The notes beneath the pieces are model-generated. The model saw only the letters and a program-made list of their open reading frames with translations. It was not told where the DNA came from and searched no databases. From Bacillota bacterium (GTDB taxonomy: Bacteria; Bacillota; Clostridia; Christensenellales; DTU072): a stretch of 64,000 bases of DNA. The translations under genes and the position numbers were made by a program. Location of the stretch: positions 2,464 through 66,463 of the forward strand of contig WQYD01000003.1 of NCBI GenBank assembly GCA_009781445.1, given 5' to 3'. Below, in pieces: positions 4,805 to 63,476 of this stretch (its first letter is position 1; every line of letters begins with the position of its first letter).

Positions 4805-4812
4805 AATTAATC

Positions 4813-6756: not shown

Positions 6757-6867
6757 TAGCTATCACAAAAATCCGATTGCGCTTACCTAAGGGGTTTTTA
6801 TCTACGGAAGCGTAACAATGGGTATAGTTGGAAACGGCTATGCCTCCCGTATTGGAAAGGAAGCAAT

Positions 6868-9958: not shown

Positions 9959-9965
9959 AGAAAAT

Positions 9966-17030: not shown

Positions 17031-17205
17031 GTATGATGTGCGCCTTTGGCGCATGATGATATGATGACGCTACGCTAATGATGGGCGGGCAAGCCCGCAT
17101 GAACTGATTTAATTTAGCATTCCTTAATGTTGCGAAGCAACACATCATAAGGCGAAGCCGACATCATACCATCATAAGCGAAGCGACATCATAAGCGCAC
17201 GCGCC
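17031..17205. repeat. Family-2 element (ATGATG-word type)
   Basis: Left half has ATGATG words separated by GC-rich mini-palindromes. The conserved centre is gggcgggcaagcccgcatgaactgatttaatttagcattccttaatgttgcgaagcaaca. The right half has CATCAT words. Confidence 0.85.
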
Positions 17206-20534: not shown

Positions 20535-20546
20535 ACGCATTATGCA

Positions 20547-20683
20547 ATGCACAACGCACAACGCACAGCGCACAATGAAGGATTAATTCAGAATTAAGAA
20601 TTCAGAATGCAGAATTATGGATTAATTAACTAATAATGAGATTTAGAATCTATCATTGTGCGCTGTGCGCTGTGCGCTGTGCA
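20547..20683. repeat. Family-1 heptamer-array palindromic element
   Basis: (CA[A/G]CGCA)x4 - aatgaaggattaatt - (CAGAATT-type)x4 - atggattaattaactaataatgagatttagaatc - (TGTGCGC)x3.5. Confidence 0.9.
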
Positions 20684-22859: not shown

Positions 22860-23016
22860 CAGCGCACAACGCACAGCGCACAGCGCACAATGAAGGAATC
22901 ATTTATTGATGAGATTTAGATTCCACCATTCGTAAATCGTAAGTCGTAAGTCGTCATTACTCTTAATGAGATTTAGAATCCACCATTGTGCGCTGTGCGC
23001 TGTGCGTTGTGCGCTG
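22860..23016. repeat. Family-1 element with duplicated core
   Basis: (CAGCGCA)x4 - aatgaaggaatc - core 1 (gatgagatttagattccaccatt) - (CGTAAGT)x3 - core 2 (taatgagatttagaatccaccatt) - (GTGCGCT)x4. Confidence 0.9.
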
Positions 23017-23689
23017 TTTTGCGGTTTATGAAATAAACAATAAAAAAGAACCCCGCAAGCAAAGCAAACAGCCCAACATAATATATCGCGTAAAATCCGC
23101 TTATCGCACTTGAGTCAATAATGCCGTTAAAGAGGTTTCCTTCCGCAAGATCCAAAATTACATAACTGCCCTGCGGGTTTATAAGCCACCTCATAAAGAA
23201 TGCGTAGCCCACGGATATGCCCGTGAAAAGAGGGGCTTGCCTTATGTAATGCCTATCAAGTTTGTGGGTAATTAAAAGCGTAAGCCCTGATAGATATAGC
23301 AGTGCGTGATTAAAAGTTGCCATTATAAAAAGGAAAGTTCCGTCATTTTCAAAGAGGTATATTGCTGGGGTGGCAATCCCTGTAAGGAAGTAAAAGAACC
23401 CTGCCACAGGCGCGCAAAACACGGCAAAATTTATTAGCGGTTTTTTATTGGTAAGCACTGCAAGCGAAAAAACAAAATAGCTGATTGCGCTGAATTCAAT
23501 AGGCACTTTGTGGTGAAGCCCCACTATTTGCCAATAAATATATTCAGTAATTTTATATGTTAAGAAAAATATTGCTGAGGAATAAAGCAGAATTTTTGAC
23601 GCTTTTTTGTTATCTTTAAATATGCCGAACACGGCAAGATTTAAGCCTATAAAAATCAGAATTAACAGCAGAGAAAACAGATAAATCAT
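22973..23689 (-). CDS. Polytopic membrane protein (hypothetical)
   Basis: About 7 hydrophobic segments. I prefer the ATG at 23689 (MIYLFSLLL...). The C-terminal [15 protein letters not shown] and the stop lie in repeat 22860-23016. Confidence 0.45.
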   Translation of the reverse strand: MIYLFSLLLILIFIGLNLAVFGIFKDNKKASKILLYSSAIFFLTYKITEYIYWQIVGLHHKVPIEFSAISYFVFSLAVLTNKKPLINFAVFCAPVAGFFYFLTGIATPAIYLFENDGTFLFIMATFNHALLYLSGLTLLITHKLDRHYIRQAPLFTGISVGYAFFMRWLINPQGSYVILDLAEGNLFNGIIDSSAISGFYAIYYVGLFALLAGFFFIVYFINRKTAHNAQRTAHNGGF

Positions 23690-23756
23690 ATGTAATTTTA
23701 TCTTATCACAGTAAAAAAGCCTAAGCAAGCGTGTTTACAAAAAAGGATAAATTCCA

Positions 23757-24065: not shown

Positions 24066-27000
24066 TTATCTACGCGGTGAACGGCTGTAACGGCGTCCTG
24101 CGTGAGTTCTGTCTTTCCGCTTGAAAATCATGCTAAAGAAGAACAGAATGATTAACAGCGCAACACCGCCGATTGCAAACCCAAGAACATAATTCATATA
24201 TTCAGGCATTTCAGGAATCCTTAATCCGCCCACGCTTATGGAACGCACAGGGATATAATTCTCTGAATCAAAGTTCTCGCCTGCAAACAGCACCTCAACC
24301 ACAAACGCTTGGTTCGCGCTTATGCCGTTAAACACATTACTGCTTTGCCCCGGTGCAATTTCATTGCCCTCCAAATCAATCAATCTGTACACAGTGCCTG
24401 CGGGCGCATTGGTTGAAATAACATGGATAGTACCGTCCTCATTTCTTGTTACGCGGATATCAATATTAAATTCTGCCCTGTTTATAGTTAGAATTGCACC
24501 TATGCGGGCAACCTCAAAGCCGTAGTGCATTATAACAGCGGTAACATCGTATTGCCCTGCGTTCACTGGGAATGTGGTAAGCTGAAGCCCGTCCGACATT
24601 CTTATAAAGCTATAGTAAACCGATACGCCCTCTTGGGTAAAGCCTTGCGGTTGCGAACCGAAGTTCACTGCCCCTGGGGATTTCGCATTGCCGTCATACA
24701 CATATTCTGCGTCCCCCACAACTATTGCATTGAACGCATTGGCGGTAATCCTCAATGTGGTTGTTACCGTTTCAAATGTGTAGTTATCCGCCACTATTGA
24801 AAGCACGAATTCGTAATCACCAAGAAGCGTGGGGTTAGCTTCGCTTCCGTCTTTATAATAATTGGTAAACACTGTGATATTCTCAATATCGTTTCCGAAC
24901 AGCCCCAATATATTATATGTTGCTTGCTTAGCCGTACCGCTGTACTTGTGTTCAAGCCCTGCGATTGACGCGGTAAGAATTGCTTTAAAGATTTCAAAGT
25001 GGAACATGGTTTCGCCGTCATAGCTATAGTTTCCGAATTCGTCTTCAAAGCTGATAACCACAATGTATTTGCCTGCACCGCTTGCGTTTTCCACGATTTC
25101 ATAACCGCTTGGCACGCTGATTCCGAATGCGCCCCCGCTTGCGTTTTTGGGTGCGGGATTTCCTGCATTTACATATGTTTCACGCATGAAAATCATATGC
25201 GGAATAACCTTATAATCTTCGTCATACTGCGCAAATAAATTGATATTTGCGTTACCGCCGTTGAAGCTTAATTCGCTAATAAATTCTTCTTTTAGTTCCA
25301 CTTCGCGTGCGTGAATATCAAAGGAATAAGCGTAAACCTCAGTGAGTTCGCTGTTAGGATTTTGAAGCCTTACTTCCACGCTGTAAGTTCCCACATTACG
25401 CACTTGGCTTACTGGAATCTCATTTCCGTTTCTAAAGTACACGAATATTAAATCGCTTGAAATTTCCTCACCGCCGTCAAAAGCGAATGCTTTTAAGGTT
25501 TGCGTAAGCGCGCCGATTCCGTTTTCTTTTGCAGAGAACTGGAATGTTTTTCCGTTAGGCGCGTCCGATTCGTCAAGCACAGCTTCCGCCCTGCTTATCG
25601 TAAATGTTATGCCCGAAACCACGAAGGGGTGAATTGTGTTAGGCGAAGAAACGGTGAACGAAACAACGAAACTTCCTGCGCCCCTAATTTCCTTACCGCC
25701 TAAATCTGCCACGAACGATAAGCCGTGCGCATTGGGCAGGTTGGTTATTACAGGGGTTGTGATTTCGCCGTTGTACACCCTTGTGGCGTTATTGAATAAA
25801 AGTTCGGCTTGCAAGAAGTCCTCTGTGTACATTGCCCTTGCAATCACGAACACCGCGCTTAGCCCTGCGCTTGGCATTTCAAAATTAGAATCGTTTACCA
25901 CAAGGTTAACCACATATTCGCCTGCGTTCACGGGGACTACTTGGGTGCTTAAATCGTCTGAACGGAAGAAGTATTTTTCTAAATCCGCAACGGTGAAGCC
26001 GTTTCCTTGGGCATCTTTAAATAAGAAGGAAGCAATGTAATGCTTGCTTAGCCCGTCATACACCACCGCGTTTCCAGTTGCCTCTGCAAGGCTTAAAGCC
26101 CTTGGCATAACAACGATTTCAAAAGCGGTTTCGCTTAACTCATAATATGCGTTTGCCAAGGTGTTAAGGCTTAAGGTAACCAAGTACGCGCCTGCGTTCT
26201 TAACCGCGCTTGCAACCGCGCCGTTAAGCCTTATATCCTTATCAATAGTAAGGGCAACGCCACTTACAACAGGGAATGCTTGTGTGGAAGCCACCACTTC
26301 AAACTCTTCGCCAGAGTAAACGAACTGCGTGCTTGAAGTAAGTGAGGACTGAACCAAAATCTTGCTTATATAAATAAGGATACTAATATTAGCTGAGGAC
26401 GCGTCAAGCAACACATTACCGCCAACCACATTCACGGTTATGGCGTTTGCACCCACGCTAAGAGGTTGGTTGCTTATGAATCCGCCGAACTGCGTGCTTG
26501 CAATAAAGCTGTTCACAATGAATGCGTTATCAGGGAATAAGGAATTAAGAACTGAGTTAATCTCTTCCGTAATACCGCCTTGGAACGCGCTAAACGATGC
26601 AAGATATTCCACCCTTTCGCTTTCGCCGATTGAGATATCAATGCTAAAGTTTTCCACCGTAAACGGCGCAACATTTAGCGTGATTACATATGTTGCATTG
26701 TAATAAACACTGTTTTCATTGAGGCTTAAAGCGAACAAATCGTTATAGCTGTTCACGGTTAATTCATTAAGATTTACACCGCCGTTTGGTTGAAAGATTA
26801 GCCCCTTACTTGCAAAGTTAGCCTCTGCCCTGTTCACGGCAAATGCTCTGCCAAGTTCGTCAATATCATTTATATCAAGGGTATCCGTGCTAACGCTTTC
26901 CACGGTGTAATCACTTAAGGAATAAAGTTTTGAAAGCTCAATTTCCGCAAGCACATTAGCACGGCGCATTGTAAGCGTTACGGATAAATCCGCCACCTCA

Positions 27001-30000
27001 TAGTTAGAAGCCAAGCCGTTTAACATTGCGTAAGGGTTATTATCAAAATCGTTTTCCTTATTGAAATCAATTCTGAATTCATAGCCCACACCGCTGATAA
27101 ATTGAAGCTGTGTAACCGAAAGCGTGATTAAACCAAGTGCCTCAGAGGGCTTAACGAAATCACTTGCATTAGCATGAAGAACATATGCGGAAGCACTTGA
27201 GAAATCATTTCCGCCTGCTGTGTAATTGATTACCGCACCGCTGTTAACCGCGCCACCGCCAAAGAAGTTTATGGAAACAGGCAGGTTCTTTTTTGTAACC
27301 TCAAACACATATTGGGGAACTGCCGAAGCCACCACATAGTTCACGCTTGCAAAGCCTGCCGAATTGGCTACATATGCAAGGGTGTAAGAATCTGCATTAA
27401 GATATTCGTCATTAAGCGGAACGGAAACACCGAAGCCGTTTCTTAAAGTAAGCCCAAGCCTTATTAGGCGGTTATCCGTTTCACCCACCACAAGCTGTTC
27501 GCCGAACAAATTAAGCGCGTTGATTTCGGCTATCGTCATGCTTTCAAAGTCAAGATCCACCGAACTTGCGCGCATACTTCCGTACTCGTTTTGAAGGTTC
27601 GCAAGCCTGCTTAAGTTAAGCGTGAGTTGCCTCGGGCGGATTTGCACCACAAGCCTATTGCCGTTTGCAAGAAGCAAATAGCTTCCGATTGCCTCAATGT
27701 TATCTATATCATAATTCCTTTGCGCGCTTAAATAATTTATGCTTGCAAAGTAGTCGCCCACATCACCAAGAGTTCCCGCGCCTATTCTCTCAAGATTCAC
27801 TTCCACCGTGCTTCTAACTTCTGCACCAGCGGGAAGGTTCGTAACATTTGCGCCACCGTTAAACACGCTGAAATCATTTAACGCGCCAAGTTCGTCATAG
27901 GTAAGGGCGAATGTTCCGCTGTAATTTATGCTTAGAAGCAAGCGCAGAATCTCAATTGGGAAACTGCCGATATCAAGCGCAAAATTAAAGTTTTGGCTTT
28001 GGTTTGCGCCTGCTTGAAGCGACCAGAAATAGTTGCCTGCGTTCACTGCCTGCACGCCGTTTTCGTCCGAAGCCGTAACGGTAACGCCTGCAAAATACCC
28101 TGCCACATAAGTGCGCAAGTTGCCCTCAACTATATTTCCGTTTAAGTATACTTCATATGAAAGTGCGGTTAAAAGCCTTGTGATTACTGCGCCTGTGTAG
28201 TTCGCGCTGTTAGAGGTTGAACCTATAGCAATGTCTATTGTAATCGCTTCAATTACATATGTTAACACCACATTGCCGAAGCTATAATTGGCTACAGTTT
28301 CGTCACTTAAATTAACCGTGTAAATGCCTGCGTTTCTAAAGCCCACAGCGGTTATATTATCACCCGCGGGATTCTTAAATTGATACGCGCCTTGCAACAC
28401 ATTGTATATACCTGCGCTGTCCTTTGAATTATCCCATGCGGTAACGCCAAGCATTTCATAATCATTAAGCACGATATATCCGCTTGCGTCAAACGCACGG
28501 CTGAATGCTGTTTTGCTGAACGATACAGCGCGCCTTGTGATTGAGAGTGCGCCGTTCACAAACGAAATATTATAGTTATCCGAAGTGAAACCGCCTATGC
28601 TGATTACATATGAATCACCCACCGCACTCTGTTCGTTTGCGCTAAGGATTTGGATATTTAGAGTACCGCCTAAGTCTTGATAAGTGTCCTCACCAAGTAA
28701 CGAATCGCCGATTGAAGTTCTGAAAATTACATTGCTAATGCTTAAAGAAGGATTAGCTTCACCGTACACACGGCTTATGTTTTTGGCTATAACTTGAAGC
28801 GAAGCAGGGGTTATTATTTTTGTTTCTGTAAGCCCCGAAACCGCAAGCTGATAGTTATCATTGCTTGGTGCGTTAAAGCCCGTTACGGTTAATGTGTGCG
28901 TTCCCACATTCCTAAAATCATTTTGTTCTTGCGTAACAAAGGAAACAACTTCGCCGTACGCAGCGGCTAAAGGAAGGGCAACAGGGTTAAATTTTACACC
29001 CGAATAAACCGCCGTTTCAAAACCGCTGAACGAAACGGTAAGAGTGAATTTGGTAACGGTGAGCGTACCGCCCACAAATGCAATATCATAGTTTGGTGAA
29101 GAAACACCGTCCACGATAATCTCATATTCCGCCACATTTAAATGCCCCGTTTCGGCAAGCCTTGCGTTAAGCGTGCCACTTAGAACAGAGGCATTTTCGC
29201 CCTGTGCAAACGGTGAGAATCCATATGAAAAGCTTGGCGTTCCGCCGTAAACCATGGCGATGTTATCTGCCCTTACGGTTAATGCCATGGGGGCAATGTT
29301 CCATGTTACTGAAAGATCAAAAACACTGATTTCATATAGGTTTGTGGTTTCCGCACTTATGGTTGTGGTGTGCGTTCCTGCGTTTCTTGCGCTTGCATTA
29401 ACTAATTGAATTATATCGCCGTTAACGGTTGCACCGCTTATTGAAACAGTCTTATCTTCGTTGCTGTAAATTGCGTTTTGCGGTAGTAGCCAAGTAACAT
29501 TTAGGTTTCGTTTATTTACAGTTATGGTTGAACCTGAAAACAGAATGTCATAATTATCTGAAGTCAGCCCGCTTACCGTAACAGGATATGTGCCGGGTAC
29601 GGAACGCGCGTCAGCCACGGTGGAAATAACTAATTTACTGTTAGTTGCCGTTTCCACAGATTCTATTGTTTGCCCCCCAACCAATCCGCTAACGCTATAT
29701 TGCAGTACGGGGTTAGGATTGCCGTACTGTCTGCTACCGGCAGGATTGGCTTGAATTGATAGGCTTGCCCTGTTGATTACATATGAAATTTCGTCCACGG
29801 AAGGAATTTCGTAATTATTGCGATCCGATAAATCAATAACTTTTGCAGTGTATGTTCCTGCGTTTATTGCACTTCCGCCCGAAACGGTGGTGGTGATTGT
29901 TTCGCCGTTTGCAGGGTTGGTAACAGTGGCGGTAACGCTAACCGGCCCACCGATATAAGTAAGCCCTGTATGCCCGTTCCATTGAAGCCCTACCACGCGT

Positions 30001-32327
30001 TTGGTAATTGTGATTGTGCCTGTGGGGAAAGAGATATCATAGTTGTTAGACGAGAATCCGCTTGGGGTAACCACGCGCTGAGAACCTGCCACGGTGGTTG
30101 TGGTGGCATCGTGTGCATAGCTTATTGAACCGCTGAGGACACTAACCGTTTCGCCGTTCACAAAACCGCTTGCGGTGTAGCCAAGCATGCTTGCATTAAA
30201 ACTGCCGTAATCAGTGGTTACATTGTTTGCCCTTATCGTGAGAGGCGCAGGGAAGATTGACCATGTTTCAGAGGTGTTACCCATAACCACATTGTACCTT
30301 GTGAGGGTGGTTTGGATTATGGAAGCGGTGTAACCCCCTGCGTTCGTTTCGGTGTTTCCCGAAAGCAAAATGCTATCACCGTTCACAAGGTTGGTGCTTG
30401 ACGCGGTAACCGTTTGAGGCACGCCTGTGTAAAGCGCGTAACCATTCCCCGGTTTGTGCCATGTAACGCTTATGCTTCTTCTTTCTATCGTGAGTTGCGC
30501 GTTGGTGGTTGAAATTTCATAGTTGCCCGAAGTGAGGGAATTAACCGTTATTGTGTAAGTCCCCGGTAAATCCGTAACAGTCGCATTTGTGGTTGCGCCG
30601 TGCGTTCCCCAACCGGTGAGAACCGTGCTTGCTTGTTCGCCGTTCACCAGCCCGGTAACCGTTAGGCTTGGGGCAGGGTTGGCGTCACCGTATTGGCGGG
30701 ATTGGTTTCCTGCCACCACTGAAAGCGTTGCCCTTGTTATGTTCCATGCTTGGGAAGAGTTAGAGGGTAACGCATAGTTAGAATTTTGAATAGTTGCCGA
30801 AGCGGTATAGCTTCCCACATTGGTTGCCTTAGTGTTAGCAAAACTTACCACGCTTGCTTGGCTTGCACCAAGTAAGCCCGACACGGTAGGTTCATGCGTT
30901 TGTTCCACACCCGAATAGGGGCGCGAACTGCTTGGCCACGAAAAAACTAAAGGCGCAGGGTTTATGGTGAACGCATAGTTTACCTCACCTATCGTGGTAC
31001 TGCTACCATTCCTCAGCACCGCCCGCAGTCGGTAACTGCCTGCATTTGTGGGGGCGGTAACACCTATGTTCGTGCCTGCCGAATTTTGGTAATACGGCGA
31101 GGTAGACCAAGCTACCCCTGTGGGCAGTCCCCCCCCGCTTGGCAAGGTTACAGTAGGCCCTTGCGCCGAACCGCTGAATGTGTACGAACTACCGCCCGAA
31201 ATTGTAAAAGATACGAAGTTTGCAGTAAGTGTGATTGCCCTGCCGTTATAGCTTACCTCACCTGCAATTGAGGGGGTTAGCGTGGGGCTTGCGTTGCTTA
31301 TATAGGTTGCACCTGTAATGTTTGCAGACCAATCTCTAAAGTAATAGTTAGCGTTAGGGCTTGCGGTGTTTGCAAGCATACCAGTAGTGCCGTTAGACGG
31401 AAGCGTAACGGCAAGGCTTGTTCTTGTAAGAGAACCGCCCGCACCGCCTGCCGCACCGTTAGTGGTGATGCCATAGGTGTGCGTTGAAGCGCTGTAAGTC
31501 CATGTAATTGTAACGCTATTTACAGTTAGATTCGCATAAACCCTCGCCCTGCTTCCGCCTGCTGAACCTGAGTTGCAGGTTGCGTGCTGATAGGATTGGT
31601 ATTCAAGGCGGATACCCGTCATGTTAGTTGCTGCGGCAAAGCTCGCAGTGTTGCTATTTCTTGCGCCGGTATTTGAGCCGGTAAAGGTGGTTGTGCCACG
31701 GCTTGTAACTGTGCCACTTACATTAGAGTATATTTCTGACCAGCCTTCGTATCTGCTCCCGCCACCAGTGCTTCCGCTTATAGAACCGCTCCATATGCCG
31801 TTTGTAACCACAGATATATTGGTAATCTTGCCACTAGATATTGCACGCAAAACATCCCCTGTAAATGTAATGTTATATTGGAATCTGAGCATTGCGTGCG
31901 CCCTTTTATCATTACCTGCGATAACCGCCTTGTAATCTGATTCCATATCCGCTGTCCAACCGCCTCTTACTGTGGAGTTTGACCAGCTTGCACCGGGAGT
32001 CCCGCCGGCATCTATATTCACCACATGGAGTGCGTTGCTACTTGGGGCTGCGTTGGGAATATTTGTGCTTCCGTTGTTGTTACCAGAACGGTTACCCGAA
32101 AGATCATGGTTCATACGGCGGTTATTATGGCTATTATTATTGTTATCCCTGCCGTTCCACCCAGGTAAAGCGGCATCTGCCGATTCAATAACTTCTCTAT
32201 CAAAAATTGCAGGGGCAAGCCGTCCAAGGCTGAACACCCCCATGGTAAATAACAGCGTAAAGCAAATAAACAGCCCTAAGCCAAGCAGTAAATATGCTGA
32301 TAATCTTCTTTTTGTGTTTGTTTTCAT
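24066..32327 (-). CDS. Giant cell-surface repeat protein (MBG-domain-like repeats), 2753 aa
   Basis: N-terminal signal/anchor and an Asn-rich segment. At least a dozen repeats carry YG..NP.L.....G.VNGE...L.G...GTY.I......S.NY.I.F..G.L.I. C-terminal TM (FAIGGVALLIILFFFSMIF) plus a basic tail; AGAGGTGA RBS. Confidence 0.85.
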   Translation of the reverse strand: MKTNTKRRLSAYLLLGLGLFICFTLLFTMGVFSLGRLAPAIFDREVIESADAALPGWNGRDNNNNSHNNRRMNHDLSGNRSGNNNGSTNIPNAAPSSNALHVVNIDAGGTPGASWSNSTVRGGWTADMESDYKAVIAGNDKRAHAMLRFQYNITFTGDVLRAISSGKITNISVVTNGIWSGSISGSTGGGSRYEGWSEIYSNVSGTVTSRGTTTFTGSNTGARNSNTASFAAATNMTGIRLEYQSYQHATCNSGSAGGSRARVYANLTVNSVTITWTYSASTHTYGITTNGAAGGAGGSLTRTSLAVTLPSNGTTGMLANTASPNANYYFRDWSANITGATYISNASPTLTPSIAGEVSYNGRAITLTANFVSFTISGGSSYTFSGSAQGPTVTLPSGGGLPTGVAWSTSPYYQNSAGTNIGVTAPTNAGSYRLRAVLRNGSSTTIGEVNYAFTINPAPLVFSWPSSSRPYSGVEQTHEPTVSGLLGASQASVVSFANTKATNVGSYTASATIQNSNYALPSNSSQAWNITRATLSVVAGNQSRQYGDANPAPSLTVTGLVNGEQASTVLTGWGTHGATTNATVTDLPGTYTITVNSLTSGNYEISTTNAQLTIERRSISVTWHKPGNGYALYTGVPQTVTASSTNLVNGDSILLSGNTETNAGGYTASIIQTTLTRYNVVMGNTSETWSIFPAPLTIRANNVTTDYGSFNASMLGYTASGFVNGETVSVLSGSISYAHDATTTTVAGSQRVVTPSGFSSNNYDISFPTGTITITKRVVGLQWNGHTGLTYIGGPVSVTATVTNPANGETITTTVSGGSAINAGTYTAKVIDLSDRNNYEIPSVDEISYVINRASLSIQANPAGSRQYGNPNPVLQYSVSGLVGGQTIESVETATNSKLVISTVADARSVPGTYPVTVSGLTSDNYDILFSGSTITVNKRNLNVTWLLPQNAIYSNEDKTVSISGATVNGDIIQLVNASARNAGTHTTTISAETTNLYEISVFDLSVTWNIAPMALTVRADNIAMVYGGTPSFSYGFSPFAQGENASVLSGTLNARLAETGHLNVAEYEIIVDGVSSPNYDIAFVGGTLTVTKFTLTVSFSGFETAVYSGVKFNPVALPLAAAYGEVVSFVTQEQNDFRNVGTHTLTVTGFNAPSNDNYQLAVSGLTETKIITPASLQVIAKNISRVYGEANPSLSISNVIFRTSIGDSLLGEDTYQDLGGTLNIQILSANEQSAVGDSYVISIGGFTSDNYNISFVNGALSITRRAVSFSKTAFSRAFDASGYIVLNDYEMLGVTAWDNSKDSAGIYNVLQGAYQFKNPAGDNITAVGFRNAGIYTVNLSDETVANYSFGNVVLTYVIEAITIDIAIGSTSNSANYTGAVITRLLTALSYEVYLNGNIVEGNLRTYVAGYFAGVTVTASDENGVQAVNAGNYFWSLQAGANQSQNFNFALDIGSFPIEILRLLLSINYSGTFALTYDELGALNDFSVFNGGANVTNLPAGAEVRSTVEVNLERIGAGTLGDVGDYFASINYLSAQRNYDIDNIEAIGSYLLLANGNRLVVQIRPRQLTLNLSRLANLQNEYGSMRASSVDLDFESMTIAEINALNLFGEQLVVGETDNRLIRLGLTLRNGFGVSVPLNDEYLNADSYTLAYVANSAGFASVNYVVASAVPQYVFEVTKKNLPVSINFFGGGAVNSGAVINYTAGGNDFSSASAYVLHANASDFVKPSEALGLITLSVTQLQFISGVGYEFRIDFNKENDFDNNPYAMLNGLASNYEVADLSVTLTMRRANVLAEIELSKLYSLSDYTVESVSTDTLDINDIDELGRAFAVNRAEANFASKGLIFQPNGGVNLNELTVNSYNDLFALSLNENSVYYNATYVITLNVAPFTVENFSIDISIGESERVEYLASFSAFQGGITEEINSVLNSLFPDNAFIVNSFIASTQFGGFISNQPLSVGANAITVNVVGGNVLLDASSANISILIYISKILVQSSLTSSTQFVYSGEEFEVVASTQAFPVVSGVALTIDKDIRLNGAVASAVKNAGAYLVTLSLNTLANAYYELSETAFEIVVMPRALSLAEATGNAVVYDGLSKHYIASFLFKDAQGNGFTVADLEKYFFRSDDLSTQVVPVNAGEYVVNLVVNDSNFEMPSAGLSAVFVIARAMYTEDFLQAELLFNNATRVYNGEITTPVITNLPNAHGLSFVADLGGKEIRGAGSFVVSFTVSSPNTIHPFVVSGITFTISRAEAVLDESDAPNGKTFQFSAKENGIGALTQTLKAFAFDGGEEISSDLIFVYFRNGNEIPVSQVRNVGTYSVEVRLQNPNSELTEVYAYSFDIHAREVELKEEFISELSFNGGNANINLFAQYDEDYKVIPHMIFMRETYVNAGNPAPKNASGGAFGISVPSGYEIVENASGAGKYIVVISFEDEFGNYSYDGETMFHFEIFKAILTASIAGLEHKYSGTAKQATYNILGLFGNDIENITVFTNYYKDGSEANPTLLGDYEFVLSIVADNYTFETVTTTLRITANAFNAIVVGDAEYVYDGNAKSPGAVNFGSQPQGFTQEGVSVYYSFIRMSDGLQLTTFPVNAGQYDVTAVIMHYGFEVARIGAILTINRAEFNIDIRVTRNEDGTIHVISTNAPAGTVYRLIDLEGNEIAPGQSSNVFNGISANQAFVVEVLFAGENFDSENYIPVRSISVGGLRIPEMPEYMNYVLGFAIGGVALLIILFFFSMIFKRKDRTHAGRRYSRSPRR

Positions 32328-32341: not shown

Positions 32342-32470
32342 TCAGCGCGAAGCGCACAATGGTGGTTTTTTTAATAATGATATTTAGAATCCTTCTCGTT
32401 TCATGTTTCTCGTTTCATGTTTCTCGTTTCATGTTTCTCGTTTCACACGCTACGCATACGCGTAGCGCGC
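32342..32470. repeat. Family-1 element with 14-nt tandem repeat, in the 5' leader of the giant gene
   Basis: cagcgcgaagcgcacaatggtgg - core taataatgatatttagaatcc - (TTCTCGTTTCATGT)x4 - hairpin cgctacg..cgtagcg. Confidence 0.85.
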
Positions 32471-32668: not shown

Positions 32669-32833
32669 CAGCGCACAGCGCACAGCGCACAGCGCACAGC
32701 GCACAGCGCACAATGGTGGATTCTAAATCTCATTATTGGTTAACTAATCCATAAATTCGTACTTCGTACCTTGTACTTCGTACCTAAATAAATCATTCCT
32801 TCACTGTGCGCTGTGCGCTGTGAATTGTGCGCT
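32669..32833. repeat. Family-1 heptamer-array palindromic element
   Basis: (CAGCGCA)x6 - aatggtggattctaaatctcattatt (core, reverse) - TTCGTAC-type array - aatcattccttcac - (TGTGCGC)x3. Confidence 0.9.
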
Positions 32834-35940: not shown

Positions 35941-36099
35941 TATGAATTATGGAATTTTTTATTAAGAATTTATCTTAATTAGATTTAGAATCCACCATTC
36001 GTAAATCGTAAGTCGTAAGTCGTCATTACTCTTAATGAGATTTAGATTCCACCATTGTGCGCTGTGCGCTGTGCGCTGTGCGCTGTGCGCTGTGCGCTG
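35941..36099. repeat. Family-1 element (one-armed; duplicated core)
   Basis: Degenerate AAGAATT part - core - (CGTAAGT)x3 - core - (TGTGCGC)x6. The inner part is nearly identical to 22905-23016. Confidence 0.9.
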
Positions 36100-37699: not shown

Positions 37700-37787
37700 A
37701 ATTAAGAATTCAGAATTCAGAATTCAGAATTGTGGATTAATTAATATTGAAATTAAAATTCCGCCATGTTTCTCGTTTCTCGTTTCA
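37700..37787. repeat. Family-1 element (short)
   Basis: (AAGAATT/CAGAATT)x4 - gtggattaattaat - degenerate core attccgccat - (GTTTCTC)x2.5. Confidence 0.8.
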
Positions 37788-40531: not shown

Positions 40532-40655
40532 TAATTCAGAATTAAGAATTCAGAATGCAGAATTATGGATTCTAAATATCATTAATAATATAATCTGTCA
40601 TTCGTAAGTAATAATCAATCCGCAATTCTTAATTCTGAATTCTGAATTCTTAATT
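40532..40655. repeat. Family-1 element with CAGAATT arrays on both arms, inside the pnt operon
   Basis: aattcagaattaagaattcagaatgcagaatt ... aattcttaattctgaattctgaattcttaatt flank a reversed core (ggattctaaatatcatta) and cgtaagt. Confidence 0.9.
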
Positions 40656-43568: not shown

Positions 43569-43616
43569 AATTATTAATGAGATTTAGATTCCACAATTCG
43601 TACTTCGTACCTAAAT
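43569..43616. repeat. Family-1 fragment (core plus TTCGTAC array)
   Basis: attattaatgagatttagattccacaa-ttcgtacttcgtacc. Confidence 0.8.
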
Positions 43617-44862: not shown

Positions 44863-45015
44863 TAATTCAGAATTATTTTTCAGCGCACAGCGCACAACGC
44901 ACAGCGCACAATGTTGGATTCTAAATATCATTATTGATTAGGCAACAGGCAATAGGCGCGGAATTATTATCAATATTTCCTTCACTGTGCGCTGTGCGCT
45001 GTGCGCTGTGCGCTG
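44863..45015. repeat. Family-1 heptamer-array palindromic element
   Basis: (CAGCGCA)x4 - aatgttggattctaaatatcattatt (core, reverse) - AGGCAA[C/T] array - ttccttcac - (TGTGCGC)x4. Reverse-orientation homologue of 4672-4804. Confidence 0.9.
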
Positions 45016-45805: not shown

Positions 45806-45813
45806 GATTTTTT

Positions 45814-46025
45814 TGGTGATTGGTGATTTGTGGTTGGTGGTTGGTATTTCAGCGCACAGCGCACAACGCACAGCGCACAGTGAAGGAATTATTTATTTAG
45901 ATACGAAGTGCGAATTGTGAATTACCTAATTTTCAGTTACCGACTGAAAAATTGCTTGTGTTAATTTGTTAATAATGAGATTTAGAATCCGCCATTGCGC
46001 GCTGTGCGCTGTGCGCTGTGCGCTG
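45814..46025. repeat. Family-1 composite element
   Basis: GGTGATT-type array (45814-45846) - (CAGCGCA)x4 - agtgaaggaatt - degenerate GTACGAA array - small hairpin tttcagt/actgaaa - core - (GCGCTGT)x3. Confidence 0.9.
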
Positions 46026-50012: not shown

Positions 50013-50163
50013 TTTAATTCAGAATTCAGAATGCAGAATTATGGAATTATTTATTTAGGTACGAAGTACAAGGTACGAAGTACGAATTATGGATTAATTA
50101 ACTAATAATGAGATTTAGATTCCTTCATGTTTATCGTTTATCGTTTCTCGTTTCTCGTTTCAT
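50013..50163. repeat. Family-1 module concatenate in a divergent intergenic region
   Basis: (CAGAATT)x3 - atggaattatttatttag - (GTACGAA)x4 - ttatggattaattaactaataatgagatttagattccttcat - (GTTT[A/C]TC)x4. Confidence 0.9.
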
Positions 50164-54700: not shown

Positions 54701-54726
54701 AAAAACCGCCGAAAGGCGGTTTTTTC
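54701..54726 (+). terminator. Rho-independent terminator
   Basis: aaaaaccgcc-gaaa-ggcggttttt followed by T. Repeat 54727-54856 starts immediately after it. Confidence 0.75.
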
Positions 54727-54856
54727 AGCGCACAATGCACAGCGCACAATGATTGATTCTAAATATCATTATAGATTAATCCATAATTCTGCATTCTGAA
54801 TTCTTAATTCTGAATTAATCCTTCATTGTGCGCTGTGCATTGTGCGCTGTGCGCTG
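54727..54856. repeat. Family-1 heptamer-array palindromic element
   Basis: (CAGCGCA/CAATGCA)x3 - aatgattgattctaaatatcatta (core, reverse) - AATTCTG-type array - aatccttcat - (TGTGCGC/TGTGCAT)x4. Reverse orientation of 20547-20683. Confidence 0.9.
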
Positions 54857-55855: not shown

Positions 55856-56006
55856 CAGCGCACAATGCACAGCGCACAGCGCACAATGAAGGATTCTAAA
55901 TCTTATTATTAGTTAACTAATCCATAATTCGTACTTCGTACCCTGTACTTCGTACTTAAATAAATAATTCCACCATTGTGCGCTGTGCATTGTGCGCTGT
56001 GCGCTG
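55856..56006. repeat. Family-1 heptamer-array palindromic element
   Basis: (CAGCGCA/CAATGCA)x4 - aatgaaggattctaaatcttattatt (core, reverse) - TTCGTAC array - aattccaccat - (TGTGCGC/TGTGCAT)x4. Confidence 0.9.
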
Positions 56007-56019
56007 AAAAAACAGAAAA

Positions 56020-57279
56020 ATGCTTGATTTTAGATTTGTTGCAGAAAATATAGAACTTATTGAGAAAAAGTGCCGTGATAGACGGCTTAGCCTTGATTTA
56101 ACGCCCGTTAAAGAACAGGCTACTAAAAGGAAAAACCTCATAAGAGATGTTGAGGCTTTGAAGGCACGCAAAAATACCGTGAGTGCGGAAGTTGCCACGA
56201 TTAAAAAGGCGGGTGGAAATTGTGATAGCCTTATCCTTGAAATGCGCGAAACTGGCGATAAGATTAAGGAAATGGATTCACTTCTTTCCGAAGTTGAAGA
56301 ATGGTTAAGCGAATTTATGTTTAACATTCCTAACCTTGTGGACGACAGCGTGCCAATCGGCAAGGACGCAGAGGATAACAAAGAGGTTAGGAAATTTCTT
56401 GAACCCACCAAATTTAGCTTTAAGCCCCTGCCTCATTGGGAAATAGGTGAAAAGCATGATATTCTTTCGGCTTCACTCGGCGCAAGGATAGCGGGCGCGC
56501 GGTTCACCGTTTATAAAGGAATGGGGGCAAAACTTGAACGCGCAATTATCAATTTAATGCTTGATACGCACGGCGAAGCAGGCTATACCGAAATTTTTCC
56601 GCCCTTCCTTGCAAACCGCGAAAGCATGATTGGCACGGGGCAACTTCCCAAATTTGAGGAAGATATGTTCCGCGTGGCAAACACTAATTTTTATTTAGTG
56701 CCTACCGCCGAAGTTCCCGTAACGAATTTATTCAGAAATGATATTATAGACGGCGCAAAACTTCCAATTAAATACACCGCTTACACGGCTTGCTTCCGCG
56801 CGGAAGCTGGAAGTGCTGGCAGAGATACAAGGGGGCTTATCCGCCAACACCAATTTAATAAGGTGGAACTTGTGAAGTTTGCGCACCCGGACGAAAGTTT
56901 TAAAGAACTTGAAAGCCTAACGGCAGACGCTGAAAAAATCCTAAAACTATTAAAACTTCCTTACAGAGTTGTTATGCTATGTTCGGGCGATACGGGGTTT
57001 AGCAGTTGCAAAACTTACGATTTAGAAGTTTATATGCCAAGCTATGAAAGATATGTGGAAATCTCAAGCTGTTCTAACTTTGTGGATTTTCAAGCACGGC
57101 GTGCAAATATCAAATTCAGGGACGAAAGCGGAAAATTGCGCCTTGCCCACACCTTAAACGGTTCGGGGCTTGCCGTGGGCAGAACTGTGGCGGCAATTTT
57201 AGAAAATTACCAACAAGCAGACGGCAGTGTGATAATCCCCGAAGTGCTGAGGAAATATGTGGGGGCGGAAAGGATTTAG
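56020..57279 (+). CDS. serS: Seryl-tRNA synthetase
   Basis: [17 protein letters not shown]..., the N-terminal coiled-coil arm and class-II motifs (...[24 protein letters not shown]...; ...GSGLAVGRT). Confidence 0.9.
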
Positions 57280-57466
57280 CGCACAACGCACAGCGCACAG
57301 CGCACAATGAAGGAATTATTTATTAAGTACGAAGTACGAATTGTGGATTAATTAACTAATAATGATATTTAGATTCCAACCCTGCACCCTGCATCCTGCA
57401 ACCTGCACCCTCAATAATAATATATAGAATCCACCATTGTGCGCTGTGCGCTGTGCATTGTGCGCT
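57280..57466. repeat. Family-1 element with five modules
   Basis: (GCGCACA)x4 - atgaaggaatt - (GTACGAA)x2 - ttgtggattaattaactaataatgatatttagattcc - (CCTGCA[C/T/A])x4 - second partial core - (TGTGCGC)x4. Confidence 0.9.
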
Positions 57467-57478
57467 GAATTAAGAAAT

Positions 57479-58117
57479 ATGTCCAAAAAAGATAAAGAAA
57501 AAGCTGAAAAGAAAGAAAAAACGGGTTCGGGTGAGGCACTCGGTTCTTTGCTACGCGTTATTGTGGGCTTTTTTAAGGTTTTATTTAAAATAATTACCTT
57601 TTTCGGGCTTTGGGCGCCTGCGCTTTACGCACTTTTCGGCGTTATTCTGCATTATTCTTCGGGGTTTGATCCCTTTCAGGACGGCGGAAATTCGCGCCTT
57701 TTTTGGGTGGGATTCGCGCTGTGCCTTGTTACCACAATAATAATTTTTATAAACAATTTATTCGTTAAGCCTATTAAGAATATTAGAAAGGGCTATAAAA
57801 ACCCTGTTTGGAAAAAGGGCGAAGAGGAAAGCGAAGATAAAAAGGGTGCGAAAAAAACCAAAAGCAAGGAAAGCGCAAAGCCTAATCAAAAGGCAGAACC
57901 TCAAAACGCCCCCAAAGGAAAAGTGCCACCCAAGCGCGAAGAGATTCAAAGGCCAAAACCGCAAGGCGGGCAATCTTACGCGCCTGAAAGAGAAATGCCA
58001 CAAATCTATTTTAGCGCACGCGAACCCGATACGCTTGTGCATGAATATAAGGATAGATTTGAGGTTTATAAAATAAGAAACGGCAAACCTTATATAGATA
58101 GGGTTGAATTTAAATAA
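57479..58117 (+). CDS. Hypothetical membrane protein with Lys-rich N- and C-terminal regions
   Basis: Start set at the ATG at 57479 (MSKKDKEKAEKK); the ORF-track N-terminus [14 protein letters not shown] is repeat-derived. Has 3 hydrophobic segments. Confidence 0.4.
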   Translation: MSKKDKEKAEKKEKTGSGEALGSLLRVIVGFFKVLFKIITFFGLWAPALYALFGVILHYSSGFDPFQDGGNSRLFWVGFALCLVTTIIIFINNLFVKPIKNIRKGYKNPVWKKGEEESEDKKGAKKTKSKESAKPNQKAEPQNAPKGKVPPKREEIQRPKPQGGQSYAPEREMPQIYFSAREPDTLVHEYKDRFEVYKIRNGKPYIDRVEFK

Positions 58118-59021: not shown

Positions 59022-59918
59022 ATGAAAGCATTCTATATTGAAAAAGACATTTATATAAACCCTGTGGACACGGAAAACATTGATTATGTTTTCTCGCCAC
59101 GATATGGGTATTTGAAGTTAAATAAAAATAAGAAGATAAGGGGCGGTGAAGCGTTTTTGTTCGGCACTTATAACAACTTGTTTTTAAAACTATATCACGC
59201 AAGCCACCTTTCGTACACTAATCTTAAAAAACTTCAAGCCATGCTTGAGATTGATATAAGGAATCCTTTTATCCTTTGGCCCAAAGATTTAATTTTTTAC
59301 GAAAATAATTTCGTGGGCTATGTTATGGACGAATTAAAGGATTGCCGTTCTATAGACGAACTACGGGACGAAAATTTTGCGTCTTTTAAAACGCTTGATA
59401 GGTTCGTTATCGTTAAAAACTTTTTGAAAAATATTGCGTATCTTCACAAGAAAAATATCCTTGTGGGGGATATGAAGCTGGATAATATCCTTGTTAAGCA
59501 AAATAAGGAAGTTTATATTATAGACACGGGAAGTTTCCAAGTAGAGGATTACCCTTGCGCCGTTTACCACAGAGATTACACAGAAAGGAAATTAACGGAA
59601 GAGGAACTAAAGCAAAGCCTAAGAGAATTAAAGGACGAATTTTACCCGATAAATAAAATTATATTTGAAATCCTTATGCTTAAAACCCCCTATTATAATA
59701 AGGATAATATAGAGATAGACGCCGAGGGTAGCCGTGAATTTCATTACCCAATGAACGCAGACGAAGCAGGCAAAAACCCCCCTCTTCACATAAAAATTTG
59801 GCTTTCGCTTAGCCCTGCCATGCGTGGATTTTTTAAGGATTACTATAAGGACGGAAAAATTACACCGCTAAATGTGTGGATTGAGGAACTTGAGAGGTTT
59901 ATCGGGGAAAAGCAGTAA
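59022..59918 (+). CDS. Protein-kinase-like protein
   Basis: Catalytic-loop-like HKKNILVGDMKLDNILV and an IIDTGSF (DFG-like) motif. No obvious glycine-rich loop. Confidence 0.55.
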   Translation: MKAFYIEKDIYINPVDTENIDYVFSPRYGYLKLNKNKKIRGGEAFLFGTYNNLFLKLYHASHLSYTNLKKLQAMLEIDIRNPFILWPKDLIFYENNFVGYVMDELKDCRSIDELRDENFASFKTLDRFVIVKNFLKNIAYLHKKNILVGDMKLDNILVKQNKEVYIIDTGSFQVEDYPCAVYHRDYTERKLTEEELKQSLRELKDEFYPINKIIFEILMLKTPYYNKDNIEIDAEGSREFHYPMNADEAGKNPPLHIKIWLSLSPAMRGFFKDYYKDGKITPLNVWIEELERFIGEKQ

Positions 59919-59986
59919 GTACGAAGTACGAATTAAGGATTAATTCAGAATTAAGAATTCAGAATGCAGAATTGTGGATTAATTCC
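59915..59986. repeat. Family-1 fragment (GTACGAA and CAGAATT arrays), overlapping the kinase stop codon
   Basis: gtaagtacgaagtacgaattaaggattaattcagaattaagaattcagaatgcagaattgtggattaatt. Confidence 0.85.
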
Positions 59987-60232
59987 TAACAGAACCCCGC
60001 AGGGGTGAAATGTGCATAACCCCATGCAAGCGGTAGCGAAGCTTGGGGTAAGGCAAAGGAATGTGGGTAGCAACACAAAACCCACCTTTCTGCCATTGGC
60101 AGAAAGGTGGGTTTTGTTTGTGTAGGTTAGCTTGCCGTACCGTCCTTAGCCACGGGTTTCACCCATGGTTATCCAAATTCTGCCCGCTTGGGGGCAGTTA
60201 CGGATTTTTCCATAATTTGTACTTCATAATTC
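59987..60232. repeat. Family-3 hairpin-cluster repeat (includes a bidirectional terminator)
   Basis: Shares ggtgggttttgtttgtgt[a/g]ggttagcttgc.gt.ccgt...ccacgggtttcaccc.tggttat...ctgccc..gggcag with 43434-43560. Extra left part has gcaggggtgaaatgtgcataacc. Confidence 0.8.
60081..60120. terminator. Bidirectional rho-independent terminator between convergent genes
   Basis: 14-bp stem cccacctttctgcc / ggcagaaaggtggg with a 3-nt loop, an A-run before it and TTTTGTTTG after it. Confidence 0.7.
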
Positions 60233-61603
60233 TTACTGTTTCATTTTCCTCACCTCATATAAAATCAAACTTCCCGCAACTATCGCGGCGGCGAAGTCTG
60301 CCACTGCGCCAGAGTAAAGCACGCCGTCTATTCCAAAAAAGAGTGGCAGGATTAGAATTAAGGGTAGCAGGAATATAACTTGCCGTGTGAGTGCAACCGT
60401 TACCCCCCTAATGGGCTTGCCTATGCCCGAAAATAGGTGCGCGCCAAGGGGTTGAACCCAATTAAGCGCGGTTAGCATTAAAAATATTCTAAAGTATTTT
60501 ACGGCAAATTCATTAAATAGTTCCCCTTTTACCCCAAAAATCCCTATTATTTGCAATGGGAAAATTTGAAACAGCAAAAAAGCAATTATGGAAACGGCAC
60601 TAACGGCAATAAACGCCTCAAAAAGCACGCGCTTTACGCGTTCGTACTGCCCTGCCCCAAAGTTATAGCTGATTATGGGGTGCGCGCCCTGCGCCGTGCC
60701 GATTACTATGGAAAGATAAATTATGTTAATTTTTGTGATAATTGCAAAAACCGCTTGAGGGATTTCCGCGCCGTACACGCTTGCTTCGCCGTACTTTTTA
60801 AGCATATTGTTCATAACAATTTGAAGTGCCATAAGCGAAGTTTGGTTCACAAGGGGGCTTGCGCCCAGCCCTGCGATTTTTAGCATTAAATTAAAATCAG
60901 GCTTAAAATGCTTTTTAGTAAGTTTAACCCTTTTGAATCTAAAGAAGTACGCCACCGTGAACGAAGCAGACACAAACTGCGCAATAACCGATGCCCACCC
61001 TGCGCCCTTTATGCCAAGGTTTAGCCAAAGAATAAAAACTGCGTCCAAAATCACATTCAGCACCGCGCCCGAAAGCACGCAGAACATTGCGTATTTGGGG
61101 CTACCGTCCCCACGGATTATCACGCTACCGCCCACCGTAAAAGTTATTAACGGAAAGCCTAACAGCACAATGCGCGCATAATCTTTTGCAAGCGGAAAAG
61201 TAATATCGGTTGCGCCGAACGCAACCAACACCGAATCAAGAAACACGCTTAAAAATATGGCAAGAAGAACGCTTAAAACGCCAAGCATTACGATTCCGTT
61301 TCCCACCGCCTTTCCTGCGCTTTCGCGGTTTTCTCTGCCAAGTTCCAAATTATAGAATGCAGTTGTGCCTATTCCGCAAAGAAGTGAAACGGCTGTGGTA
61401 AGCGTGGCAAGCGGAATAACTGAGGCAATAGCGGCGTTGCCCGCACTGCCGATAACATGCCCGATAAAAATCTGATCCACAATTTTATAAAGCGCGCTAA
61501 CGAGGTTTGCAATTATCGCAGGCACAGCAAAACGCACAAGTAGCCTTGTGATTTTTTCATACCCGAGGGGATTTTTATCATTTAGCGCAACCGTATCATT
61601 CAT
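60233..61603 (-). CDS. MATE-family efflux transporter
   Basis: 456 aa with 12 TM helices and the N-terminal ...LLVRFAVPAIIANLVSALYKIVDQIFIGH pattern typical of MATE. Confidence 0.85.
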   Translation of the reverse strand: MNDTVALNDKNPLGYEKITRLLVRFAVPAIIANLVSALYKIVDQIFIGHVIGSAGNAAIASVIPLATLTTAVSLLCGIGTTAFYNLELGRENRESAGKAVGNGIVMLGVLSVLLAIFLSVFLDSVLVAFGATDITFPLAKDYARIVLLGFPLITFTVGGSVIIRGDGSPKYAMFCVLSGAVLNVILDAVFILWLNLGIKGAGWASVIAQFVSASFTVAYFFRFKRVKLTKKHFKPDFNLMLKIAGLGASPLVNQTSLMALQIVMNNMLKKYGEASVYGAEIPQAVFAIITKINIIYLSIVIGTAQGAHPIISYNFGAGQYERVKRVLFEAFIAVSAVSIIAFLLFQIFPLQIIGIFGVKGELFNEFAVKYFRIFLMLTALNWVQPLGAHLFSGIGKPIRGVTVALTRQVIFLLPLILILPLFFGIDGVLYSGAVADFAAAIVAGSLILYEVRKMKQ

Positions 61604-63299: not shown

Positions 63300-63317
63300 T
63301 GCGGGGCATTATGTGTT

Positions 63318-63476
63318 AGGCCATAGGCCATAGGGCATAGGCCATAGTAATTGAATTTTCTAATTCAGAATTGTGGATTAAATAATAAATTGAATTTTCT
63401 AATTCAGAATTGTGGATTAAATAATAATGAGATTTAGAATCCACCCCTATGCCCTATGCCCTATAACCTATGCCCT
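63318..63476. repeat. Family-1 element with GGCATAG/CTATGCC arms and a 39-bp internal tandem duplication
   Basis: aggccataggccatagggcataggccatag ... 2 x (aattgaattttctaattcagaattgtggattaaataata) ... tgagatttagaatccacc - cctatgccctatgccctataacctatgccct. Confidence 0.9.

Follow-up and report, generated by a model that had tools for sequence, protein, structure and literature searches.

Modular heptamer-array repeats between and within the genes of an uncultured Clostridia bacterium

In 2008 Elhai et al. reportedly described short tandemly repeated repetitive (STRR) sequences of cyanobacteria, heptamer arrays with embedded small dispersed repeats (the SDRs of Nostoc). SDRs sit inside a single direct array, and large-scale in-frame occupation of housekeeping genes has, to our knowledge, not been described for STRRs. 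Drosophila and other eukaryotes have foldback (FB) transposons, whose terminal inverted arms are made of short tandem units in variable number, around a variable central segment; we know of no bacterial counterpart. Heptamer arrays, long known in cyanobacteria, are the commonest long-unit microsatellites in bacteria, TAACTGA being another known example, and their origin and their link to mobile DNA are unsolved (PMC4679880). The Rickettsia palindromic elements (RPEs; Ogata et al., 2000, cited in PMC3184786 and PMC1458961) are palindromic selfish repeats found both in frame in conserved proteins and in intergenic DNA, and in-frame fusions of further repeats with genes have been reported (Delihas, 2007; PMC2759123). 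The bacterial interspersed mosaic elements (BIMEs) of E. coli, made of repetitive extragenic palindromes (REPs) plus linker motifs, and the pneumococcal BOX elements (boxA-boxB(n)-boxC) are mosaic extragenic repeats (PMC3184786, PMC3733652). Here we describe heptamer arrays in a 64-kb stretch of contig WQYD01000003.1 (the window, meaning the whole stretch analysed) from an uncultured gut-type Clostridia bacterium, in which conserved junction words and a 20-nt core combine the arrays into composite elements. The focal copy, E18, lies directly downstream of serS.

The 189-bp E18 (57278-57466) lies in the spacer that separates serS (stop codon TAG, 57277-57279) from the next gene (ATG at 57479). 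It is composed of the following parts, all on the forward strand:

57278-57306 (+): left outer array, (C)AGCGCA x4.1, its first bases overlapping the serS TAG (letters AGCGCA-CAACGCA-CAGCGCA-CAGCGCA-CA)
57307-57316 (+): junction word ATGAAGGAAT
57317-57326 (+): connector TATTTATTAA, directly after ATGAAGGAAT
57327-57349 (+): inner left module, GTACGAA x2 plus junction TTGTGGATT
57350-57377 (+): AATTAACT plus core 1, AATAATGATATTTAGATTCC
57378-57412 (+): right-form array of the CCCTGCA type, 4.7 units, read AA-[array]-CCCTC
57413-57437 (+): core 2, AATAATAATATATAGAATCC, degenerate (2 mismatches), plus junction ACCAT
57438-57466 (+): outer array on the right, TGTGCGC x4.1, complementary to its left counterpart

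The initial annotation had seen five modules at 57280-57466, where we count four arrays and two cores. The outer arrays with their junctions form 41-nt inverted arms that are 90% complementary and separated by 115 nt. E18 can be described as an element of the type of its neighbour E17, minus two GTACGAA units and plus a 53-nt [core + CCCTGCA array] unit. The sequence directly after it reads GAATTAAGAAAT. As a separate observation, serS and the gene after E18 both start 13-14 nt past an element (56006-56020 and 57466-57479) and lack a recognisable Shine-Dalgarno sequence, unlike many other window genes, at which GGAGG-like sites are present.

Tandem Repeats Finder and our own scan located about 54 period-7 arrays in the window, grouped in 20 composite elements of 40-330 bp (E1-E20, catalogued below) that make up about 5% of its length. 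Among arrays of at least 20 nt, 49 had period 7, one had period 6 and none had period 5 or 8. A module in one orientation consists of [7-mer]n followed by RTGNNGGAWT, and its right form of AWTCCNNCAY followed by [7-mer]n. The composites have a left-centre-right layout, with one or more left-form modules on the left and their reverse complements on the right, such that the junction word is always on the centre-facing side of its array. GGAWT downstream or AWTCC upstream was found within 14 nt of 42 of the 54 curated arrays, never on both sides, compared with 9% of random window positions (binomial P = 2.6e-33); the junction is thus conserved well above the AT-rich background. The other 12 arrays had one-mismatch words (GATCC, AATCT, AGTCC, TTTCC, TGATT) or none (63317, 45813), so the initial annotation overstated the case in having every array end in a junction word, although all of the junction examples that it listed were found in the sequence. 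The 7-nt phase of the array relative to the junction, which it had proposed as a check, is fixed within each unit family; for example, 20/20 GCGCACA modules end in ...GCGCACA + (A/G)TG.

The core, AATAATGAKATTTAGAWTCC, had 18 matches in the window with up to three mismatches, against 0.02 expected, and none of 100 shuffles reached 18. The centres of the composites are AT-rich, and in most intergenic copies the core lies there, directly before a right-form module. As had been claimed, an array always follows the core: within 10 nt at all 18 cores in the window, and also at the four cores in a further 7.6 kb of the same contig. The converse did not hold, as the core is missing from every coding copy that lies in frame and from the majority of left-hand modules. 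Upstream of the core the context varies, being either GGATTARTTAACT or, immediately, another array; after the outer left junction comes a further conserved connector, GGAAT-NATTTATTTAG. The pattern of heptamer array, junction and core is confirmed as real.

There are about ten heptamer unit families in total, some of which differ by one substitution after a register shift (GAGAAAC/GAGACGA, GTACGAA/TTACGAA, AGGCCAT/AGGCAAT). Outer arrays are often complementary (GCGCACA/TGTGCGC, AATTCAG/CTGAATT, GAGACGA/TCGTCTC, GTACGAA/TTCGTAC). The terminal arrays of E5, E10 and E15 are non-complementary, so that inverted ends are not present in all composites. Nested insertion of symmetric elements was rejected as an explanation of the layout, because left and right modules often differ in number and the inner arrays lack complementarity.

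Comparison of composites with one another was informative about how they spread. Several pairs at unlinked loci were closely similar over their full length (E2/E3, 94%; E6/E9, 95%, with E9 compared against the right half of E6; E4/E16, 94%; E1/E13, 91%; E17/E8, 89%). The order of variant units was also kept between paired composites, and gaps occurred in 7-nt steps. Thus, AATTCAG-AATTAAG-AATTCAG-AATGCAG was found at 20585, 40533 and 59942, and reverse-complemented at 54786, while GTACGAA-GTACAAG-GTACGAA-GTACGAA was found at 32742, 50050 and 55912. E15 and E17 share an interior of about 85 nt that is about 95% identical, whereas their outer arrays are AATTCAG/GTTTCTC in the former and GCGCACA/TGTGCGC in the latter, and on either side the similarity breaks off no more than 3 nt from the junction words. 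This pair bears out the earlier proposal that the heptamer is interchangeable while junction and core are conserved. Differences by whole units were seen between E6 and E9 (4.3 vs 6.3 units) and between E17 and E18 (4 vs 2 GTACGAA), and a metagenome contig, L006, contains at least four tandem [array + junction + core] units of about 55 nt, of the same kind as the 53-nt unit of E18. Judged from these alignments, elements have been copied as whole composites between unlinked loci, arrays have been exchanged at junction words, and arrays have gained and lost whole 7-nt units.

These results bear on the model put forward in the initial annotation, in which a protein or RNA recognises the core and junction, and the heptamer array is a secondary product; we considered it in the form of synthesis or expansion in place by a telomerase-like or slippage-primed process. 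Part of that model is supported. An array follows 22/22 cores, the junction-array phase is constant, L006 has its tandem run, and related families one substitution apart are homogenised within arrays; moreover, arrays do change secondarily, with near-identical copies differing by whole 7-nt units. However, de novo generation beside the core is contradicted by the recurrence of one variant order at unlinked loci and by the restriction to about ten unit families. Roughly one array in two lacks a core (left modules and coding copies), and there is no reverse transcriptase or polymerase-like gene nearby among the window open reading frames (ORFs). The shared variant order at unlinked loci and the 89-95% identity of the composites argue that arrays were inherited with their module rather than regrown. 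We therefore regard synthesis in place as unlikely, although de novo arrays could still be the historical origin of each unit family. Nor did the window or the contig extensions provide a candidate for the partner protein that the model had predicted for the core and junction.

Three genes of the window contain an element in frame. They encode an ECF S-component (E2), a fused EcfA ATPase (E3) and a membrane protein with a HAAS domain (E5). All three elements are free of stop codons in the frame of the host gene only; of the 102 frames of the 17 intergenic copies, only 5 are open. A phmmer search with the E5-encoded peptide (SAQRTAHNEGLIKNSEFRIQNEG...TNHQPPITNHQSNPAPCNLQ) against 1.84 billion representative proteins yielded strong matches only in the metagenome-assembled genome (MAG) to which the window itself belongs (protein MCL2630033.1), i.e., in AddA (with four inserts), AddB, MscL, an NFACT protein, a radical-SAM activase and a partial hypothetical protein (accessions MCL2629888-MCL2631387). 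An EcfA of this MAG, P0122, has three inserts, and at least nine further proteins of the MAG contain translated elements, AddA, AddB, MscL and EcfA among these. The insert peptides correspond exactly to the translated arrays (AHSAQRT, NSEFRIQ, LCPMPYA, TNHQSPI, ETRDERR, SSLVSRL) and the translated junction (NEG); further examples of predicted element-encoded peptides are SAHSAQRTAHNEG, RDERRETRDE, QNSEFRIQNEG, TPMPYALCPMP and RDERRETRDEIR. A word-indexed protein search with the RDERRET... peptide gave no match, probably because of its low complexity. In the coding copies the left-centre-right order is kept, the stop-rich core is missing, and reading proceeds from the left-form side in every case. 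We consider the most interesting result to be that many housekeeping proteins of one organism carry this grammar, which the search of 1.84 billion representatives found nowhere else.

Because 7 equals 1 modulo 3, all frames of an array specify one and the same peptide with a period of 7 residues, three units making one period. In an AlphaFold2 model of the EcfA ATPase (ORF 11920-13350), both ABC domains had predicted local distance difference test (pLDDT) scores of 80-95, while the E3-encoded residues 217-265 scored below 50; E3 occupies a position that is a variable linker in homologues. Copies that are stop-free in the host frame persist in frame within genes, to be read as disordered low-complexity loops, linkers or C-terminal tails. 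This is an extreme case of selfish repeats absorbed into essential proteins, and it bears on the origin of low-complexity linkers and new C-termini. We noted also that in the closest homologue of this EcfA, P0123 (60% identical), the first ATPase ORF apparently ends (..EVKSED) exactly at the start of E3; the 1,187-bp contig of P0123 ends nearby. Because of that apparent end, the 476-residue EcfA of the window may represent two adjacent genes joined by E3 as an open-frame element.

Might the copies within genes not be translated at all, being removed by RNA or protein splicing, or skipped by ribosomal bypass in the manner of mitochondrial "byp" elements? In its favour, strong mRNA hairpins would be expected from the GAGACGA/TCGTCTC copies. 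However, every coding copy examined (the three of the window, and at least 15 from other MAG proteins) had no stops and kept the host frame, when skipped elements need not stay open; intergenic copies are closed in nearly all frames, and the stop-rich core is absent from the coding copies. We regard removal or skipping as very improbable.

The 17 intergenic composites are found between convergent, co-directional and divergent gene pairs, and elements fill most of the gaps between genes in the window whatever the direction of transcription. Between co-directional genes the core is in the sense orientation in three cases and antisense in four, with no bias relative to transcription. Some elements supply the ends of genes. 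E1 provides the last ~8 codons and stop of an amino-acid kinase gene, 3797-4699 (..SAQRTVKE and stop), E6 the last ~14 codons and stop of ORF 22973-23728 on the reverse strand, and the C-terminal end of ORF 8893-9747 (..SQRTAHEDMKTLRL and stop) also belongs to this group; the inverted termini of E19, CAGTAAG/CTTACTG, contain the TAA stops of both convergent genes.

The location of most copies at gene 3' ends, together with the very stable predicted folds of copies with complementary arms (-85 kcal/mol for E18, z = -11.3 vs shuffles) and the occurrence of a CAATGCA variant in both arms of E16-E18, might indicate functional cis-elements under selection, such as terminators, REP-like hairpins that stabilise mRNA, or binding-site arrays for a nucleoid- or RNA-binding protein. 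Folding varied from copy to copy, however: E5 (z = -2.4) and E15 (z = -0.06), which contain four and three unrelated arrays, respectively, fold hardly or no better than shuffles. The hairpins are not followed by a T-run, and separate native terminator-like hairpins adjoin the elements or, in E19, lie inside; a scan with a terminator consensus flagged one site only within an element, in the right array of E13 (44994-45013). An intrinsic-terminator role was accordingly rejected. A promoter role was rejected too: the core contains TAGAAT, but a sigma-70 scan showed no enrichment and flagged one core, and the core is mostly antisense to the neighbouring gene. A central hairpin, in which GGAWT and AWTCC would pair around the core, was likewise discarded, as the W positions did not covary (4/6 pairs compatible). 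Against selection for a cis function stand also the random orientation relative to transcription, the presence of one copy in a divergent promoter region and of others within coding sequence, and the absence of elements from relatives with the same operon structure. Searches of Rfam 15 gave no match with E <= 1 in 57200-57520, and in the whole window the sole match was a riboswitch (see below), the elements themselves being unmatched. A regulatory role is therefore unlikely as a general explanation, although individual hairpin copies within operons must affect mRNA.

The SerS protein of the host is 70-72% identical to its best homologues, which come from Clostridia/Christensenellales MAGs. Three relatives keep the gene order aminotransferase, serS, a gene for 245/251 residues, and HGSNAT, and in these the distance from the serS stop to the next start is 1-4 bp (4 bp in the closest, L011). 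No period-7 arrays or cores were found in the 14-21 kb serS loci of the three relatives. The comparison shows that the elements were inserted in this lineage. A search for the core in 185,579 species-representative genomes gave three single matches, when about four would be expected by chance, none with the grammar; these (L002-L004), and single matches in metagenome contigs L007, L008 and L010, were set aside as chance or unrelated. Nothing relevant was found for the core in viral contigs, phages or plasmids. The core with the same grammar was found in three contigs of JGI metagenome Ga0123356.

As side observations on these searches, L004 (1-200) and L010 (2620-2840) derive from an unrelated AT-rich organism and contain different heptamer arrays (AAATTCC, ATTTGTG/ATTTGTA). 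They also hold a ...CTAAATCT-ATTCGTAC... stretch with a faint likeness to core plus array, while the exact core match elsewhere there looks like chance. In the same metagenome as the contigs with the grammar, L005 carries a truncated IS3-family integrase (rve) ORF (8-451, reverse strand) about 1 kb from a heptamer element (~1440-1490). This element abuts an apparent end of an insertion sequence (IS), which may have inserted beside the repeat, as is known for REPs, or may be there by coincidence; the IS3-type fragment in L005 shares no ends with the adjoining element.

Short-read contigs tend to break in arrays, and contig L001 has arrays at both of its ends, which raises the question of chimeric joins at low-complexity repeats during assembly or binning. 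However, three assemblies (the window, ENA ERZ27264051 and Logan SRR10512954) are base-identical over 26 kb (12.7 + 13.7 kb) that includes eight elements, although they may derive from the same reads. In addition, host frames are kept through multiple inserts, and synteny with the relatives is intact on both sides of E18. An artefact is hardly credible. There is also a practical warning: assemblies break at these repeats, and annotation pipelines have called the host proteins as ordinary genes.

The remaining elements of the window are:

4672-4806 (+): E1, GCGCACA array, junction, GCCTATT array, core, TGTGCGC array
9251-9412 (+): E2, GAGACGA ... TCGTCTC, in frame in the ECF S-component ORF 8893-9747
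12553-12712 (+): E3, in-frame linker of the fused EcfA ATPase ORF 11920-13350
20545-20682 (+): E4, GCGCACA, AATTCAG, core, TGTGCGC, between convergent genes
22050-22216 (-): E5, a core-less set of four different arrays, in frame within ORF 21664-22431 (HAAS domain)
22860-23017 (+): E6, array, core, TCGTAAG array, core, array
32373-32444 (+): E7, core plus an array of 14-nt (2 x 7) units, TTCTCGTTTCATGT x3.8
32669-32833 (-): E8, canonical element, reversed
35974-36099 (+): E9, core, TCGTAAG array, core, TGTGCGC x6.3
37700-37786 (+): E10, AATTCAG array, degenerate centre, GTTTCTC array
40533-40650 (-): E11, AATTCAG array, core (reverse), ATTCTGA array
43573-43612 (+): E12, core plus short TTCGTAC array
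44881-45015 (-): E13, reverse-orientation counterpart of E1
45813-46025 (+): E14, GATTGGT-type array plus canonical element with an extra 47-nt insert
50016-50161 (+): E15, AATTCAG, GTACGAA, core, GTTTCTC, in a divergent promoter region
54726-54856 (-): E16, reverse-orientation counterpart of E4, beside a native terminator hairpin (54707-54730)
55856-56006 (-): E17, canonical element, its end 14 nt before the serS start
59914-60240 (+): E19, GTACGAA and AATTCAG modules and a right arm that is degenerate; ~70-nt modules and a terminator hairpin lie inside
63317-63476 (+): E20, TAGGCCA array, 39-nt duplication, core, CCCTATG array

Some of these have features of their own. E20 contains a perfect 39-nt tandem duplication (AATTGAATTTTCTAATTCAGAATTGTGGATTAAATAATA x2, 63349-63427) that doubles the junction and its flanks, an example of higher-order duplication. 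In E19, the ~70-nt modules (GAACCCCGCAGGGGTGAAATGTGCATAACCCCATGCAAGCGGTAGCGAAGCTTGGGG..., 59986-60205) flank a bidirectional terminator hairpin (60073-60123); the module recurs twice in metagenome contig L009 (439-544 and 4074-4156) at 88-90% identity, and has no Rfam match. A second mosaic class, at 9700-9960 and 17030-17200, also has the left-centre-right layout, with longer arm units of period 17-25. These consist of GTGAAGA or ATGATG and then a short GC hairpin (CGCTACGCT, TGCGCCTTTGGCGC, GGCGGGCAAGCCCGC, GCGAAGC); the centres are core-like (...ATTTAATTTAGCATTCC...), the right arms are the reverse complement of the left, and the RTGAAG/ATGATG word is similar to the start of the junction word. 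The Rfam match mentioned above is a Moco/tungsten riboswitch (RF01055, 57.7 bits) at 6762-6876, upstream of a molybdopterin-oxidoreductase-like gene and of the ECF transporter/MobB operon in which E2 and E3 reside. ORF 24066-32327 (reverse strand), with E7 and E8 in its upstream region, encodes 2753 residues with five MBG_2 (YGX-type) domains and is probably a giant surface protein.

Taken together, we think it probable that E1-E20 represent a lineage-specific family of small, non-coding, modular selfish repeats, akin to transposable elements of the miniature inverted-repeat type (MITEs) or foldback elements and near also to the mosaic BIME/BOX type. Their spread would be driven by a trans-acting enzyme encoded elsewhere, acting at the junction, at the core or on the folded arms. 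Mobilisation might be of a hairpin or single-stranded DNA type, a mechanism that would fit because no target-site duplication was seen. Mosaicism would arise by recombination or template switching at shared words of 10-20 nt, and array length would be changed by replication slippage. Compatibility with a host frame would be reached easily, as one unit gained or lost would shift the frame by one.

Several points weigh against this interpretation. The non-complementary inner arrays and unequal left and right module counts misfit simple nested transposition. No transposase, HUH/RAYT protein, recombinase or reverse transcriptase was found among the ~50 window ORFs, which are ordinary housekeeping genes, or in the flanking 10 kb. 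A Pfam search of ~58 ORFs from the window and metagenome contigs found housekeeping functions only, except that contigs other than the window gave an IS3 fragment and, below threshold, an IS1595 zinc ribbon. The copies showed no target-site duplication or clear target motif, their flanks being merely A/T-rich, as in T|CAGCGCA...TGCGCTG|A. Translation of the coding copies is deduced from open reading frames, not from peptides. Selection for stop-free heptamers was considered and rejected, as the excess (16/20 vs 61% expected) was not significant (P = 0.058), and the advantage of being frame-neutral is therefore a matter of arithmetic and inference rather than demonstrated selection. Finally, the only relatives are ~70% identical in SerS.

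A bolder proposal, which we put forward tentatively and consider rather doubtful, is that the elements are a previously undescribed class of bacterial foldback-type mobile element with arms of heptamer microsatellite. A dedicated enzyme would join or exchange modules, cassette-like, at the RTGNNGGAWT junction or the core, and the 7-nt period would be adaptive. If this were true, frame-neutral arms, self-correcting by slippage, would allow coding sequence to be colonised on a scale otherwise seen only in Rickettsia, and the genome would be a workable system for explaining how heptamer arrays arose in cyanobacteria and other bacteria, a long-standing puzzle. It offers testable hypotheses in the form of a junction-specific enzyme, template switching and slippage. 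With arrays tied to a conserved junction and core, copied as modules and swapped at defined points, it is also a rare system in which to study how repeats originate and spread.

Returning to the more probable reading, that of lineage-specific selfish repeats, how do the elements compare with the systems described at the outset? Like STRR/SDR, they comprise several types of tandem 7-nt unit in intergenic DNA, mixed within one spacer, with short conserved elements of 20-27 nt tied physically to the arrays, and they are lineage-restricted, missing from orthologous spacers of relatives; the resemblance is one of organisation only. Unlike STRR/SDR, the host is a member of the Bacillota/Clostridia and not a cyanobacterium, and the units are GCGCACA, AATTCAG, GTACGAA and others, which would set them apart from the sequence families STRR1-3 and SDR1-8. 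The arrays here, unlike STRRs, share one junction word of fixed polarity and lie head-to-head about a centre, often as long inverted arms. As with RPEs, copies lie in frame in conserved proteins as well as between genes, the inserted peptides occupy tolerant loops and termini and no transposase is recognised, although this is a functional analogy only. RPEs are fixed sequences of 100-150 nt without tandem heptamer arms or interchangeable modules, whereas here a protein may carry up to four inserts drawn from a combinatorial set of modules.

As in BIME and BOX elements, a small vocabulary of modules occurs in variable number and alternating orientation, with stable hairpins in many copies. In contrast to REP/BIME, there is no GTAG/CGTC-tagged palindrome, the ends being (T)CAGCGCA, AATTCAG and similar, and no window ORF matched RAYT/Y1_Tnp. 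In contrast to BIME/BOX, the variable parts are microsatellite-like arrays of 7-nt units rather than units of 35-45 nt, and coding insertions are frequent. With MITEs the elements share small size (40-330 bp), high copy number (20 composites) and lack of coding capacity, with stops in nearly all frames of the intergenic copies, but not a target-site duplication, as no consistent direct repeat accompanies the copies; a parent IS or transposase is not encoded in the window or the 10-kb contig extensions. Long inverted arms that are tandem arrays of variable unit number, around a variable centre, recall FB transposons, which differ in being eukaryotic, kilobase-sized and built of 10-31-bp units, with no homology. 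By analogy, and with no sequence relation to any of them to be expected, the elements would be closest to STRR/SDR in organisation, to RPEs in behaviour, to BIME/BOX in modularity and to foldback transposons in the structure of their arms.

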